A stretch of 64,000 nucleotides of DNA from Escherichia coli. Lineage in GTDB: Bacteria; Pseudomonadota; Gammaproteobacteria; Enterobacterales; Enterobacteriaceae. Location: the NCBI RefSeq assembly GCF_003334385.1, contig NZ_QOWN01000006.1. One strand, 5' to 3'. The notes below the pieces were generated by a model. That model searched no databases. It was not told the DNA's origin and saw nothing but the letters and a program-made list of their open reading frames with translations. Every line of letters begins with the position of its first letter. Within the stretch, counting starts at the first letter, position 1. The position numbers and the translations under genes were made by a program. Positions 1 through 28,960 of this stretch are shown in pieces.

Positions 1-498
1 GGCACTGCCGGTTCTAAACATCGGGCGATTCTGGCTATCGATGATCTGAATACGTAGACCTTCCTGGACCAGATCGATTTTGAGATGGGGACGTAACGCC
101 CGCAGTTTCGGATCGGACTCTATCAACTGGTCGAGATCACCCCGCAATTTCCGCAATCGACTTTGCTCCATGCGTTTTTTCAGCTCTTCGATGTTCGGCT
201 GCTTATTCACTTCCCCCTGGCTTTGGGTGTAATCATCACCACCGCCGGGAATTGGGCTTTCACTATTAGAAATGCGATCGCCGCCCGTAACCGCAGTCGC
301 CAGTGGAGTCCGGAAGTACTCCGCAATCTGAATCAGCTCTTTTGGGCTGGAGATGGAGATCAGCCACATCACCAGAAAAAAGGCCATCATCGCAGTCATA
401 AAGTCGGCATAAGCAATCTTCCACGATCCATGTGCTGCCCCGTGGCTTTTGGCTTTGCGTCGTTTGACGACAATAATCGGATGCGCTTGATTCTTCAT
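1..498 (-). CDS. motB: Flagellar motor stator protein MotB, 5' portion (first 166 codons; 3' end lies beyond window start)
   Basis: Reverse complement of 481-498 reads ATGAAGAATCAAGCGCAT (MKNQAH), the MotB N-terminus; start overlaps motA stop (ATGA coupling); in frame to position 1. Confidence 0.9.
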
Positions 499-1382
499 GC
501 TTCCTCGGTTGTCGTCTGTTGTTGCGGATTTTTCACCGCACGCACATGCTCTTCCAGTTCAATAAACGACGGACGTTCGCTGGAATAGAGCGTTTTGCGA
601 CCAAACTCAACGGCGATAGGCGGTGCGTAACCGTTCAGATTAGAAAGCAGAGTGACTTTGACGCACTGCATCATTTTGCTGGTTTCGGCGCTTTTCTGAC
701 GTAAAACAGTCGCTAATGGGGAAATAAATCCGTAAGCCAATAAAATGCCGAGGAAAGTCCCCACCATCGCATGTGCGATAAGCGCACCCAGCTCGGCGGC
801 AGGACGATCGGCTGAACCTAACGCGTGAACGACCCCCATTACAGCCGCAACAATACCAAACGCCGGAAGTGAGTCCCCGACCAGCGCCAGACTGTTCGCC
901 GGGACTTCTGCCTCGCTTTCGTGCGTCTCAATCTCTTCATCCATCAGAGCTTCGATTTCGAAGGTGTTCATGTGACCGCTGATAATCAGGCGCAGATAAT
1001 CGACGATAAAATCAAGCATGACGCTATCCGCGAGGATGCGTGGGTAGCTGGCGAAGATCTCGCTCTCACGGGGATTTTCAATATCACGTTCCAGCGAAAA
1101 CATCCCCATCTGCCGCGATTTCGCCATCAACCGATAAAGCAGAGCCAGCAGATCCATATACATTGCTTTGGTGTATTTGGAGCGACGAAACAGCAACGGC
1201 AGCGCCTTCAGCGTGCCTTTAATCGCTTTGCCATTATTGCCGACGATAAACGACCCAATCCCTGCACCGGCAATAATCACCAGTTCAGCGGGTTGATAGA
1301 GTGCTCCAAGGCTTCCACCGGTCATCAAATAACCGCCGAAAACTGTACCGAGAACAACCAGGTAACCTAATAAGATAAGCAC
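495..1382 (-). CDS. motA: Flagellar motor stator protein MotA (295 aa)
   Basis: ORF translation matches MotA in length and sequence; position downstream of flhDC. Confidence 0.96.
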
Positions 1383-1449
1383 GACATCATCCTTCCACTG
1401 TTGACCATGACAGGATGTTCAGTCGTCAGGCGTTAACGCGCGATTGGGG

Positions 1450-1483
1450 CAAAAAAAAGCAGCGGTACGTCGTTACCGCTGCT
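1450..1483 (-). terminator. Intrinsic terminator after flhC (10-bp stem AGCAGCGGTA/TACCGCTGCT followed by T8 on minus strand)
   Basis: Perfect inverted repeat 1459-1483 with A8 on plus strand (U-tract on minus transcript). Confidence 0.75.
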
Positions 1484-1543
1484 GGAATGTTGCGCCTCAC
1501 CGTATCAGTTAAACAGCCTGTACTCTCTGTTCATCCAGCAGTT
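1450..1543 (-). ncRNA. motR: Candidate MotR sRNA (motA 5'UTR-derived, sigma28-dependent)
   Basis: Sigma28-type promoter inside flhC 3' end (1552-1578) plus terminator at 1450-1483 would yield a ~95-nt RNA; published MotR is described as derived from the motA 5'UTR (recalled). Confidence 0.45.
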
Positions 1544-2087
1544 GTGGGATAATATCGGCAGGATTCTGGGAAAGTTTACGTCTTTTTACTGCCCGGGATG
1601 GCGGTTGACATAAGCTGCAGGCAAAGCTGCCAACAGGCTGGTGAGCGTGGGTAATAAAATTGCCGCCGCAGCAGTTGCAGCTGGAAAGTTGCAGTAATCC
1701 ACTTTCAACAAACCGCACCAATGTCCAGGCACGGGTTAATGCCAGCAGTGGTCCTTCTTCTGCTTGTGGGCACTGTTCAAGGTATAAACGGTAGGCTTTG
1801 ATCACCGCATCGACGCCATTACACAAACCGGTTTTCAGTAAAAACTGCCATGCATTACAGAACATCGAAGCATGAACGTTTTGTTCCCAGGTCATAAACC
1901 AGTCGGTTGAGAATGGCAGCATGCCTTTCGGCGGTGGGCTTCCGCGCAGTTCTTTATAAAGTTTTATCAGGCGTCCGCGACTTAACTGTGTTTCGCTTTC
2001 CAGCATCTGCAAACGAGCGCCCAGGGTGATCAATTCCATTGCCAGCTGAATATCCCGCGCTTCCTGAACAATGCTTTTTTCACTCAT
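1509..2087 (-). CDS. flhC: Flagellar master regulator FlhC (192 aa)
   Basis: ORF translation matches FlhC including the C-terminal Cys cluster; adjacent to flhD. Confidence 0.96.
1552..1578 (-). promoter_or_regulatory. Sigma28 (FliA) class 3 promoter for motAB-cheAW: TAAACTTT-N11-GCCGATAT
   Basis: Minus-strand match to sigma28 consensus TAAAGTTT-N11-GCCGATAA located within the 3' end of flhC. Confidence 0.65.
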
Positions 2088-2089
2088 GA

Positions 2090-2440
2090 TCAGGCCCTTT
2101 TCTTGCGCAGCGCTTCTTCAGGCTGATTAACATCATTCAGCAAGCGTGTTGAGAGCATGATGCCGGTATGAATTTGCTGGAGATCGTCAACGCGGGAATC
2201 TTGCGTCAACTGAGTAATCGTCTGGTGGCTGTCAAAACGGAAGTGACAAACCAGTTGATTGGTTTCTGCCAGCTTAACCATTTGCGGAAGAGTCAGTGCC
2301 GCTAACGTTGTCGCCATTTCTTCATTTATGCCGAGACGAAACATAGCGGACGCTTTGTCCTGAACAATCAAACGCTGTGCAAGTAGTAAATATGACAAGT
2401 TGATGTCATAAATGTGTTTCAGCAACTCGGAGGTATGCAT
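2090..2440 (-). CDS. flhD: Flagellar master regulator FlhD (116 aa from MHTSELL; ORF extends to 2449)
   Basis: ORF translation matches FlhD; start trimmed to the annotated [12 protein letters not shown]. Confidence 0.95.
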
Positions 2441-3219
2441 TATTCCCACCCAGAATAACCAACTTTATTTTTATGCGGTTTCACCGCACCCCGTGATGTC
2501 GCCGGGAAGCCCCGGTAAAAAATAATTAGCATTAGAATAGTTGCGATAAGCTGCAATAAGCAGAACCACCTTTTTGGTTTAATATGTCCTTACAAATAGA
2601 AATGGGTCTTTACACTTATCTAAGATTTTTCCTAAATCGACGCAACTGTACTCGTCACTACACGCACATACAACGGAGGGGGGCTGCGATTTTCAATAAT
2701 GTGTGATGCAGATCACACAAAACACTCAATTACTTAACATAAATGTATAAGTCATACTTTTGTTTTGGGTGTATTTCAATCTGTTAAAAAGTTTTTCGCT
2801 ACGCTAGCAAGCAAAAATGAAACAGGAATAATCGAAATGGGATGTTGCGCACAGTCAAAATAACTCACCGTAAATAATCATCTGCTATAAATAATCACTT
2901 TCATGCAATACCAGATAAGCTATTTTTAAACAGACACTTACCGCACAACAAACTAATTAAATACAAAGAAAGGCAACAATCAACTTAATGTTAATGAAAT
3001 GTTTTACATATATTAACCACTTGTTTAATGCGGAGAATCAGTACACTATTTTCTTATAATTACATTTGAAATTATATGATCACCGGGAGTGATTGATTAA
3101 TTGTCTTTACTAATAATCAGGCTAATATTTACCTGTTTGACCGAGTTGGGATTGCGTCGTTTCTCCATTAGGAGTAAAGCTTTAATGTCACCTGAAGTTC
3201 ACAGAATAAGGAACAGGTT
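2441..3219. promoter_or_regulatory. flhDC promoter, long 5'UTR and AT-rich upstream regulatory region; divergent uspC promoter
   Basis: About 780 bp AT-rich non-coding region between divergent flhD and uspC; known regulatory hub in E. coli; no IS element present. Confidence 0.7.
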
Positions 3220-3648
3220 ATGAGCTATAGCAATATTCTTGTCGCTGTTGCGGTTACACCGGAAAGTCAGCAACTGCTGGCAAAAGCGGTATCTATCGCC
3301 AGGCCAGTAAAGGGACACATCAGTTTAATTACTCTCGCTTCCGACCCGGAAATGTACAATCAATTAGCTGCGCCGATGCTTGAAGATTTACGCAGCGTGA
3401 TGCAGGAAGAAACGCAAAGCTTTCTTGATAAGTTAATTCAGGATGCGGGGTATCCCGTTGACAAGACGTTTATTGCCTACGGTGAGTTAAGCGAACATAT
3501 TCTGGAAGTATGTCACAAGCATCATTTCGATTTGGTGATTTGCGGTAATCACAATCACAGTTTCTTTTCGCGAGCATCCTGCTCGGCGAAAAGAGTTATT
3601 GCCTCAAGTGAGGTCGATGTGCTGTTAGTTCCACTTACGGGAGATTAA
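3220..3648 (+). CDS. uspC: Universal stress protein C (142 aa)
   Basis: ORF translation matches UspC/YecG; position between flhD and otsA. Confidence 0.93.
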   Translation: MSYSNILVAVAVTPESQQLLAKAVSIARPVKGHISLITLASDPEMYNQLAAPMLEDLRSVMQEETQSFLDKLIQDAGYPVDKTFIAYGELSEHILEVCHKHHFDLVICGNHNHSFFSRASCSAKRVIASSEVDVLLVPLTGD

Positions 3649-3654
3649 CCGCTC

Positions 3655-7007
<3,353 letters not shown>

Positions 7008-25575: not shown

Positions 25576-27288
25576 TTAACCCTGCAGCAGAGACAGAACC
25601 TGCTGCGGTACCTGGTTAGCTTTTGCCAGCACGGAGTTACCTGCCTGCTGAATAATCTGCGCTTTCGACATGTTGGACACTTCGGTCGCATAGTCGGCGT
25701 CCTGAATACGGGACTGCGCTTCGGACAGGTTGGTAGTGGTGTTGTTCAGGTTGGTGACTGCGGAATCCAGACGGTTCTGCACGGCACCCAGGGAAGAACG
25801 GAATTTGTCTACGGATGCGATAGCATCGTCCAGCGCTTTCAGCGGATCCGTGGTCGCTTCAGATTTACCTGTAGCTTCAGTGGTCAGAGAGCCGTCAGCC
25901 GCTTTATACAGAGCCGCGCCGTCATCATCCAGAATATTGCCGTTAGCAAATTCGTGATAAGTTTCTGTGACAGTCTTGTTGGCCGCAGTCGTCAGTTCAC
26001 CCTCAGCACCAATATTTACGGTCGCTCCACCTGTAGTAGCAGTTACTGCACCATCAGCGGCAACGTCATAAGACTGTGCGCCGTTAGCTACGGTATAAGC
26101 CTGACCGGTTAACGCAGTGTTCATATCTTCGGCGGATACCGTCGCGCCCTTAATATCCACATTGTTGCTAACCTGGGTGAAGTCAACGGTCATGCCGCTG
26201 CCGAAGGTAATCTTCGCATCAACTGCATCATGACCATTCGCACCGTTGAAAATACCGTCCAACGTTGCCGCGGCTGGGCCGCCGGCCTGGTTTTTCGTCA
26301 GGTTACCGTCAGCACCAATGTATAAAGCATCGCCATTAGTATCCGTCAGGGTACCATCGCTGGCAATTTTAACTTCCTGAGCGCTACCACCGATGGAGAT
26401 CTGAGCCGTGTTATCGCCGTTTGCTGCATAGGCTTTCAGAACATCAGCAACTTTAGTTGAGCCCGCAGTACCATCACCATTAGTAAGTGCGGTTGCGTCA
26501 AATGAATAAGACTTGCTGGTTGCGTTGTAGGTATATGCAGTAGAAGCCGCTACGCCTAACCCATTGTTTGTGCCAGCATAACCGCTAATAGTGCTGCCGC
26601 CACTAACGCTAGCCAGCACATCGGTAGCTGTTGCTGCATTAAAGGTAGTAACAGTAGATTTAGTCCAGGTGCTATTGCCACTGACAACTGCACTTTGGGA
26701 GAAGCCCGCAGCGGTCAGATCTGCTTCAGTGGCTTTTGCATTATCAACAGCGCCTTTACCGTTGACGTTGAAGCTGGTCAGCTTCAGTGTAGAAGAGTCG
26801 ATTTTTTTCAGGTCAATCGTGATGGTTTCACCATCATTTGCGCCCACCTGAATTTTCATTGAACCGTCTTTGGACAACACATTCACGCCATTGAACTGGG
26901 TCTGACCAGATACGCGGTCAATTTCATCAAGACGAGATTTGATTTCGTCCTGGATGGAGTCCAAGTCAGAATCGGAGTTAGTACCGGTAGTGGCCTGAAC
27001 CGTCAGTTCACGGATACGCTGTAAGTTGTTGTTGATTTCGGACAGCGCGCCTTCGGTGGTCTGCGCAACGGAAATACCGTCGTTGGCGTTACGTGCAGCC
27101 TGAGTCAGGCCTTTAATGTTAGAAGTAAAACGGTTAGCAATCGCCTGACCCGCGGCGTCATCCTTCGCGCTGTTAATACGCAAGCCAGAAGACAGACGCT
27201 CGATAGAACTCGACAGCGCAGACTGGTTCTTGTTGATATTATTTTGAGTGATCAGCGAGAGGCTGTTGGTATTAATGACTTGTGCCAT
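25576..27288 (-). CDS. fliC: Flagellin FliC (570 aa) with conserved termini and a variable central domain
   Basis: N-terminus MAQVINTNSLSLITQNNINKNQSALSSSIERLSSGLRINSAKDDAAGQAIANRF and C-terminus ...VLAKANQVPQQVLSLLQG are canonical; central region is Thr/Ala/Gly/Ser-rich. Confidence 0.97.
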   Translation of the reverse strand: MAQVINTNSLSLITQNNINKNQSALSSSIERLSSGLRINSAKDDAAGQAIANRFTSNIKGLTQAARNANDGISVAQTTEGALSEINNNLQRIRELTVQATTGTNSDSDLDSIQDEIKSRLDEIDRVSGQTQFNGVNVLSKDGSMKIQVGANDGETITIDLKKIDSSTLKLTSFNVNGKGAVDNAKATEADLTAAGFSQSAVVSGNSTWTKSTVTTFNAATATDVLASVSGGSTISGYAGTNNGLGVAASTAYTYNATSKSYSFDATALTNGDGTAGSTKVADVLKAYAANGDNTAQISIGGSAQEVKIASDGTLTDTNGDALYIGADGNLTKNQAGGPAAATLDGIFNGANGHDAVDAKITFGSGMTVDFTQVSNNVDIKGATVSAEDMNTALTGQAYTVANGAQSYDVAADGAVTATTGGATVNIGAEGELTTAANKTVTETYHEFANGNILDDDGAALYKAADGSLTTEATGKSEATTDPLKALDDAIASVDKFRSSLGAVQNRLDSAVTNLNNTTTNLSEAQSRIQDADYATEVSNMSKAQIIQQAGNSVLAKANQVPQQVLSLLQG

Positions 27289-27364: not shown

Positions 27365-27391
27365 TTATCGTCTGTCGTAAAACAACCTTTA
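27365..27391 (-). promoter_or_regulatory. fliC sigma28 promoter TAAAGGTT-N11-GACGATAA
   Basis: Minus-strand match to sigma28 consensus about 80-105 nt upstream of fliC start. Confidence 0.75.
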
Positions 27392-27483: not shown

Positions 27484-27510
27484 TAAACTTTGCGCAATTC
27501 AGGCCGATAA
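27484..27510 (+). promoter_or_regulatory. fliD sigma28 promoter TAAACTTT-N11-GCCGATAA
   Basis: Near-perfect sigma28 consensus about 45-70 nt upstream of fliD start. Confidence 0.8.
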
Positions 27511-27553: not shown

Positions 27554-28960
27554 ATGGCAAGTATTTCATCGCTGGGAGTCGGGTCAGGCCTGGATTTAAG
27601 TTCAATCCTTGATAGCCTCACCGCCGCGCAAAAAGCGACGCTAACCCCTATTTCAAATCAGCAATCGTCGTTTACCGCTAAACTTAGCGCCTACGGTACG
27701 CTGAAAAGCGCGTTGACGACTTTCCAGACCGCCAATACTGCATTGTCTAAAGCCGATCTTTTTTCCGCCACCAGCACTACCAGCAGCACCACCGCGTTCA
27801 GTGCCACCACCGCGGGTAACGCCATCGCCGGGAAATACACCATCAGCGTCACCCATCTGGCGCAGGCGCAAACCCTGACCACGCGCACCACCAGAGATGA
27901 TACGAAAACGGCGATCGCCACCAGCGACAGTAAACTCACCATTCAACAAGGCGGCGACAAAGATCCGATTACCATTGATATCAGCGCGGCTAACTCGTCG
28001 TTAAGCGGGATCCGTGATGCCATCAACAACGCAAAAGCGGGCGTAAGTGCGAGCATCATTAACGTGGGTAACGGTGAATATCGTCTGTCAGTCACATCAA
28101 ATGACACCGGCCTTGACAATGCGATGACACTCTCGGTCAGCGGTGATGATGCGCTACAAAGTTTTATGGGCTATGACGCCAGTGCCAGCAGCAACGGCAT
28201 GGAAGTCTCGGTCGCCGCCCAGAATGCGCAGCTGACGGTCAACAACGTCGCCATTGAGAACAGCAGCAACACCATCAGCGACGCGCTGGAAAACATCACC
28301 CTGAACCTGAACGATGTCACCACGGGCAACCAGACGCTGACCATCACTCAGGACACCTCCAAAGCGCAAACGGCGATTAAAGACTGGGTGAATGCCTATA
28401 ACTCGCTAATAGATACCTTCAGCAGCCTGACCAAATACACCGCCGTAGATGCGGGAGCTGATAGCCAAAGCTCTAGCAATGGCGCACTGCTCGGCGACTC
28501 CACGCTGCGGACGATTCAGACGCAGTTGAAGTCGATGCTGAGTAATACCGTCAGTTCTTCCAGCTATAAAACGTTGGCGCAGATTGGTATCACGACCGAT
28601 CCCAGCGATGGCAAACTGGAACTGGATGCCGACAAACTCACCGCTGCACTGAAAAAAGATGCCAGCGGCGTAGGTGCATTGATTGTTGGCGATGGTAAAA
28701 AAACCGGCATCACAACCACCATCGGCAGCAACCTGACCAGTTGGCTTTCGACAACGGGCATTATTAAAGCCGCTACCGATGGCGTTAGTAAGACTCTGAA
28801 TAAATTAACTAAAGACTACAACGCCGCCAGCGATCGCATTGATGCGCAGGTCGCGCGCTACAAAGAACAATTTACCCAACTGGACGTTTTAATGACCTCG
28901 TTAAACAGCACCAGCAGCTACTTAACGCAGCAGTTCGAAAACAACAGTAATTCCAAGTAA
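27554..28960 (+). CDS. fliD: Flagellar filament cap protein FliD (468 aa)
   Basis: ORF translation matches FliD. Confidence 0.96.
   Translation: MASISSLGVGSGLDLSSILDSLTAAQKATLTPISNQQSSFTAKLSAYGTLKSALTTFQTANTALSKADLFSATSTTSSTTAFSATTAGNAIAGKYTISVTHLAQAQTLTTRTTRDDTKTAIATSDSKLTIQQGGDKDPITIDISAANSSLSGIRDAINNAKAGVSASIINVGNGEYRLSVTSNDTGLDNAMTLSVSGDDALQSFMGYDASASSNGMEVSVAAQNAQLTVNNVAIENSSNTISDALENITLNLNDVTTGNQTLTITQDTSKAQTAIKDWVNAYNSLIDTFSSLTKYTAVDAGADSQSSSNGALLGDSTLRTIQTQLKSMLSNTVSSSSYKTLAQIGITTDPSDGKLELDADKLTAALKKDASGVGALIVGDGKKTGITTTIGSNLTSWLSTTGIIKAATDGVSKTLNKLTKDYNAASDRIDAQVARYKEQFTQLDVLMTSLNSTSSYLTQQFENNSNSK

Follow-up and report, generated by a model that had tools for sequence, protein, structure and literature searches.

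How does one short stretch of DNA at the flhC-motA junction of Escherichia coli come to encode both a small RNA and the leader of a flagellar mRNA? We addressed this question in a 64,000-nt stretch of contig NZ_QOWN01000006.1 (hereafter the window), for which a preliminary description had placed a sigma-28 promoter inside the 3′ end of flhC, upstream of a terminator, and had proposed that transcripts from it either stop as a MotR-like RNA or continue into motAB. We found that the locus is almost certainly E. coli motR, which yields the 95-nt MotR by termination and the motAB-cheAW mRNA by read-through. This arrangement has already been published and annotated (b4828, with a dedicated paper in 2023), so the first interpretation is right but not new. 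New here are the conservation figures from 80 loci, the compensatory changes in the upper terminator stem, the constraint on flhC codons 181-187, and the possible pairing between MotR nt 5-12 and nt 60-67. The sequence elements, the gene identity, and the conservation were computed in this work, while the literature supplies the dependence on sigma-28, the size of the RNA, its binding to Hfq, and its function. The genes around the junction are as follows.

Window start to 498, minus strand: motB, which runs off the window start (ORF list).
495 to 1382, minus strand: motA coding sequence with a GTG start at 1382-1380, the first gene of the read-through mRNA (ORF list, RefSeq annotation).
1509 to 2087, minus strand: flhC coding sequence, host of the promoter and of MotR nt 1-37, stop codon at 1511-1509 (ORF list, annotation).
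2090 to 2449, minus strand: flhD.

The promoter that drives both RNAs lies within the last codons of flhC and consists of the following elements.

1571 to 1578, minus strand: sigma-28 (FliA) -35 element TAAACTTT, flhC codons 170-172 (sequence read, pattern statistics).
1570 to 1560, minus strand: spacer CCCAGAATCCT, 11 nt (sequence read).
1552 to 1559, minus strand: sigma-28 -10 element GCCGATAT, flhC codons 176-179 (sequence read, pattern statistics).
1545, minus strand: transcription start +1 (A), common to MotR and the motAB-cheAW mRNA (annotation, primer, MotR* numbering).

A direct read of the sequence returned the promoter at 1552-1578 on the minus strand, where the preliminary description had put it, exact to the base. 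The site matches the sigma-28 consensus TAAAGTTT-N11-GCCGATAA at 14 of 16 positions with a spacer of 11 nt. When the degenerate pattern TAAANTTT-N10-12-GCCGATAW was searched, two matches were found in the 64-kb window, the second of which is the fliD promoter, versus none in 100 dinucleotide shuffles. The -10 element encodes Ala177-Asp178 of FlhC (GCC GAT). This is the flhC-internal FliA promoter of motA studied by Fitzgerald et al. (2014, 2018), with the same GCCGAT specifying Ala177-Asp178, and it is conserved across the Enterobacterales. Fitzgerald et al. (bioRxiv 188474) describe it as well characterised, bona fide, and the most conserved FliA promoter, report that FliA also binds it in Salmonella, and state that it constrains FlhC Ala177-Asp178. 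Elsewhere in the window, a weak sigma-28-like site with three mismatches was observed at 4784-4810 (plus strand), antisense within a 477-aa ORF (3655-5088); it is probably not meaningful, as ∼0.7 such matches are expected by chance.

We then compared the RNA that would start at this promoter with the annotated small RNA.

1451 to 1545, minus strand: MotR small RNA, 95 nt (100% identity to RefSeq motR b4828).
1498 to 1500, minus strand: MotR seed, nt 46-48, reading GUG, which the published M1 mutation converts to CAC (from primers SM467/SM468 set against the window).

In RefSeq NC_000913.3, the ncRNA motR (b4828, "small RNA MotR") is annotated at 1977208..1977302 on the minus strand, overlapping the 3′ end of flhC. 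The 95 nt of MG1655 motR match 1451-1545 (minus strand) of the window exactly, at 100% identity, and an RNA that had been estimated at roughly 95 nt is thus 95 nt exactly, from 1545 to 1451. The first 37 nt of MotR are the last 12 codons of flhC plus its stop codon (nt 35-37). Position 1545, an A inside flhC codon 181, is 7 nt past the -10 element and is the 5′ end of b4828; the MotR 5′ end (ACAACUGCUGG...) agrees with the position of the flhC-internal promoter, and the start itself was mapped by Melamed et al. (2023). Two published reagents fit the same nucleotide. The cloning primer SM001 for motR begins 5′P-ACAACTGCTGGATGAACAGAGAGTAC (ACAACTGCTGG...), that is, with the same 5′ end as the A at 1545, and MotR* is published as carrying GAG in place of TGC at positions 6-8 (Melamed et al., 2023; eLife 12:RP87151), where the bases counted from 1545 read T, G, C. 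Since both the 5′ end of SM001 and the MotR* positions fit, the +1 at 1545 is independently confirmed. The seed G46-U47-G48, the pairing of which is known from the paper, is unchanged in the window and lies just downstream of the flhC stop codon.

The proposed origin of the RNA also held, in that the coordinates agree with both RefSeq b4828 and the report that MotR originates from the motA 5′ UTR (Melamed et al., 2023; eLife 12:RP87151; PMC10578931). The same authors placed the MotR promoter in flhC and found it to be common to motAB-cheAW, showed by northern blot in MG1655 that MotR expression is fliA-dependent, recovered a ∼95-nt MotR band by Hfq co-immunoprecipitation in MG1655, and observed pairing of MotR with fliC and rpsJ in probing assays (PMC10578931). 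Rfam 15 covariance models gave no match at E ≤ 1 in window positions 1-6000; because no Rfam family covers MotR, its membership rests on identity to the RefSeq entry and on the published description, not on a curated model. MotR folds with the terminator hairpin at its 3′ end, and the folding z-score of the whole RNA is modest (-1.82).

The 3′ end of MotR is formed by two elements.

1458 to 1483, minus strand: intrinsic terminator stem-loop AGCAGCGGUA-ACGACG-UACCGCUGCU, MotR nt 63-88 (terminator scan, folding).
1451 to 1458, minus strand: U8 tract that ends MotR, the first U of which doubles as the last stem pair (sequence, b4828 3′ end).

A terminator scan found what had been claimed between the sigma-28 promoter and motA, namely a hairpin at 1483-1458 with a 10-bp stem (6 GC pairs) and a 6-nt loop, followed by the U8 run at 1458-1451. 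The annotated 3′ end of b4828 is 1451, the last U of U8, and base 1450 is the first G past the run. The hairpin follows the flhC stop codon (1511-1509) and precedes the motA GTG (1382-1380). No other convincing terminator-like site was found around there; two further scan matches are weak and lie inside the flhC coding sequence. Being the sole convincing terminator past flhC, the hairpin most likely also ends flhDC transcripts, a dual use that is suggested by its position. Literature searches for the flhDC 3′ end, the flhDC terminator, or attenuation in the motA leader returned nothing relevant, and the Term-seq study of Adams et al. (2021) with its supplements, in a text of uncertain completeness, gave no match to motA, flhC, or MG1655 coordinates.

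Transcripts that pass the hairpin have been described: Melamed et al. (2023; PMC10578931) ascribed longer bands to read-through of the MotR terminator, which had been supposed. Such transcripts carry a 163-nt leader ahead of motA, which includes the following positions downstream of the terminator.

1383 to 1450, minus strand: remaining motA 5′ UTR, only in read-through transcripts.
1396 to 1390, minus strand: motA Shine-Dalgarno sequence GGAAGGA.
1417 to 1412, minus strand: possible anti-Shine-Dalgarno sequence CAUCCU.

Within this leader we observed that CAUCCU (1412-1417) can pair with the motA Shine-Dalgarno region AGGAUG (1388-1393) on the minus strand, and that a UCCU-like box ∼20-25 nt upstream of the motA Shine-Dalgarno sequence recurs in Enterobacteriaceae. 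Of 68 single-sequence folds, however, only 41 had the motA Shine-Dalgarno sequence paired, and no consensus structure or helix emerged from RNAalifold applied to the UTR beyond the terminator.

These elements give the following sequence of events, which none of our observations contradicts. When FliA (sigma-28) is active, RNA polymerase starts at the A at 1545 from TAAACTTT-N11-GCCGATAT and, 95 nt on, runs into the intrinsic terminator, the stem of which spans 1483-1458 and the U8 run of which ends at 1451. RNAs released at this point are the Hfq-binding small RNA MotR; its seed (∼nt 46-48; window 1500-1498) pairs within coding sequences, fliC and rpsJ among them, and MotR promotes flagellar synthesis. 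Transcripts that read through, with their long leader, become the motAB-cheAW mRNA, and the hairpin most likely ends flhDC transcripts too. One short DNA stretch can in this way be coding sequence, promoter, small RNA gene, mRNA leader, and terminator, and the motR locus connects flhDC, at the top of the flagellar hierarchy, with motAB-cheAW at its bottom, as has been published already.

To see how far this arrangement extends, we scanned one genome per species with FlhC and obtained 80 Enterobacterales loci, 79 of them with motA adjacent. The sigma-28 motif is kept in all 80, with the -35 element as TAAACTT[T/A] and the -10 element as GCCGATA, and in 78 of the 79 motA-adjacent loci the -10 element ends 43 nt ahead of the last base of the flhC stop codon. 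The exception, in Enterobacter cloacae DSM 26481 (L069), has lost one nucleotide from the C run in its spacer (CCC to CC), leaving a spacer of 10 nt; the deletion also frameshifts flhC, the ORF of which runs on to a later stop, and this flhC may be a pseudogene or an assembly error.

A hairpin of the AGCAGCG...CGCUGCU type followed by a U tract was found in 70 of the 80 loci, all of them Enterobacteriaceae and Erwiniaceae; hairpins with 9-nt loops or bulges (Pseudocitrobacter, Mangrovibacter, and one C. freundii) were counted after direct folding. A U run of at least 5, typically 7-9, is likewise present in 70 of 80, and the predicted RNA measures 88-96 nt in 69 of the 70 hairpin-keeping loci and 115 nt in one. 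In an alignment of 67 sequences, the lower 7 bp of the terminator hardly change: four are the same throughout, and the other three show one or two exceptions. Compensatory changes occur at the upper 3 bp, in 5, 6, and 17 of the 67 orthologs, and nt 38-59 of MotR vary freely.

Serratia, Pectobacterium, and Brenneria (L071, L073-L079, and L081) also keep the flhC-internal promoter, and most of them keep the first ∼19 transcribed nucleotides. They have unrelated hairpins instead of the AGCAGCG terminator, with U tracts that are weak or absent, and longer leaders of 133-218 nt between flhC and motA. Because the hairpins are unrelated and the U tracts poor, production of a MotR-like RNA by termination is doubtful in these genera.

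We also followed the constraint on flhC at the codon level, using 72 distinct flhC genes of 579 nt. Synonymous-codon entropy averages 1.27 bits over codons 1-168 and falls to ∼0 at codons 167-172 (-35 element), 176-178 (-10 element), and 182-187 (MotR nt 2-19), all within codons 167-187 at window positions 1524-1586 on the minus strand. Codons 181-187 have the lowest synonymous entropy of the 177 seven-codon windows and are thus the most constrained. The constraint on transcribed flhC codons exceeds the promoter effect of Fitzgerald et al., and the promoter alone does not explain it; relative to that work, nucleotide constraint here extends to the -35 codons 167-172 and to the transcribed codons 181-187, an extension that the accessible text of that work does not describe.

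How is the ratio of termination to read-through set? Melamed et al. (2023) speculated on a feedback loop in which S10, induced by MotR, favours read-through at the motR terminator; this published proposal invokes S10-NusB, not RNA refolding. A complementarity within MotR itself would offer a simple alternative, formed by two segments.

1534 to 1541, minus strand: MotR nt 5-12 (CUGCUGGA), 5′ strand of a hypothetical antiterminator, including MotR* positions 6-8 (speculative).
1479 to 1486, minus strand: MotR nt 60-67 (UCCAGCAG), 3′ strand of the hypothetical antiterminator (speculative).

Nucleotides 5-12 are perfectly complementary to nt 60-67, which comprise the flank and the lower 5′ arm of the terminator. 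Speculatively, nt 5-12 (flhC codons 182-185) would pair with nt 60-67 before the 3′ arm emerges, so that hairpin formation would be delayed and a leaky terminator would let a set fraction of sigma-28 transcripts into motAB-cheAW. On flhDC mRNA, ribosomes that translate flhC as far as the stop (nt 35-37) might instead occupy or unwind nt 5-19, and the terminator would then form fully. A built-in antiterminator that flhC translation blocks could in this manner make the same hairpin strong for flhDC and partial for motA. We consider this model unlikely.

In nascent RNA of 67-82 nt, the antiterminator helix has a predicted probability of ∼1.0, which drops to ∼0 with the MotR* mutation (nt 6-8), and full-length MotR favours the terminator (-26.9 versus -23.1 kcal/mol). 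Among dinucleotide shuffles, 0.8% contain a perfect 8-bp helix over the lower arm (P = 0.008), and the energy gap between the nascent and terminated forms is 7.0 kcal/mol versus 12.7 ± 2.4 kcal/mol in shuffles, of which 22 of 1000 have so small a gap. Across the 67 orthologs, 99.4% of cells allow the helix to pair; C61 and C62 are invariant and U60 nearly so, though all three lie outside the terminator stem, and the region of the 5′ strand is the very minimum of synonymous entropy in flhC. MotR* was published as "more abundant", and its mutation would destroy the helix. If true, the antiterminator would account both for the higher MotR level brought about by the accidental MotR* mutation and for the invariance of the synonymous sites in codons 181-187 and of the unpaired UCC before the stem.

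However, the helix shows zero covariation, six of its eight pairs never varying and hence being uninformative either way, and the nascent minimum free energy has a z-score of only -1.24. A generic measure, sequestration of the terminator 5′ arm, was reached in 212 of 500 shuffles and was dropped as evidence, and the statistics were computed only once the helix had been noticed. In Pectobacterium and Brenneria the 5′ segment persists although its CCAGCAG partner is missing, so another constraint acts on the MotR 5′ segment. The abundance of MotR* could equally reflect RNA stability. Finally, a strain in which flhC was replaced by thyA showed normal motility in the work of Fitzgerald et al. (bioRxiv 188474), which suggests that read-through is not strictly dependent on the 5′ strand. 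Melamed et al. (2023) made no mention of an alternative structure in MotR, and we found no later paper on one.

Classical attenuators, such as the trp and pyrBI leaders, have a terminator between the promoter and the first gene and produce either a short RNA or the full mRNA. The motR locus resembles them in having a terminator before its first gene and, in silico, a mutually exclusive upstream helix. It differs from them in that no leader peptide or ligand sensor was identified, and in that the alternative helix is a prediction without covariation.

A second alternative is that the 95-nt RNA is incidental, the hairpin serving only to end flhDC transcription and the stopped sigma-28 transcripts being non-functional attenuation products. 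The hairpin does sit at the place expected of an flhDC terminator, and many 5′ UTR fragments have no known function. Against this, two families share the hairpin and the predicted length of the RNA, and Melamed et al. (2023) found MotR bound to Hfq and, by probing, paired with fliC and rpsJ; we regard a mere by-product as very improbable.

The other sigma-28-dependent small RNAs bear on how the 3′ end arises. UhpU, FliX, and FlgO share with MotR membership of the FliA regulon, Hfq binding, and a 3′ stem-loop, but derive from 3′ UTRs, FliX and FlgO being processed from their parent mRNAs and UhpU having its own internal promoter; MotR alone among them is 5′ UTR-derived and made by premature termination (Melamed et al., 2023). 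That the 3′ end of MotR comes from endonucleolytic processing of a long motA leader, as the precedent of FliX and FlgO might suggest, or that motA has a separate promoter downstream of the hairpin, has next to no likelihood, given an annotated 3′ end that coincides with the final U of a canonical hairpin and U8 run, longer bands that Melamed et al. (2023) attributed to terminator read-through, and the result of relaxed sigma-28 and sigma-70 scans, which show no promoter-like site in 1383-1449, the interval in which a motA start would have spoken against the preliminary description.

We also compared the window with K-12. MotR of E. coli K-12 (b4828; Melamed et al., 2023; eLife 12:RP87151) has the same 95-nt sequence, +1, terminator, and flhC/motA position, so that the element itself is without difference. 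MG1655 and the window are base-for-base identical over window positions 1..2701, and a 401-nt region was found in 5377 of 5426 complete E. coli genomes. The strain differs elsewhere: IS1H is absent upstream of flhD, and the fliC ORF encodes 570 aa. Despite the MG1655-identical flhDC-motA region, these two features indicate that the strain is not K-12, and MotR expression in it is accordingly an extrapolation.

The first mismatch to MG1655, a single one, is at 2702, and identity ends at 2746, the site of the MG1655 IS1H upstream of flhD; the window continues there to a 142-aa ORF at 3220-3648 (plus strand). By coordinate transfer, the antisense RNA AsflhD (MG1655 b4839, 1978176..1978395) falls at window positions 2419-2638 (plus strand), where it overlaps the start and leader of flhD in a stretch identical to MG1655. 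Further along, the 570-aa ORF at 25576-27288 (minus strand) is a FliC/FljB-family flagellin by RefSeq matches, with a length that differs from that in K-12, and the 468-aa ORF at 27554-28960 (plus strand) is fliD by the same means. Between these two ORFs lie two divergent sigma-28 consensus sites, at 27365-27391 (minus strand) and 27484-27510 (plus strand), which we take to be the fliC and fliD class 3 promoters because of the identities of the flanking ORFs.
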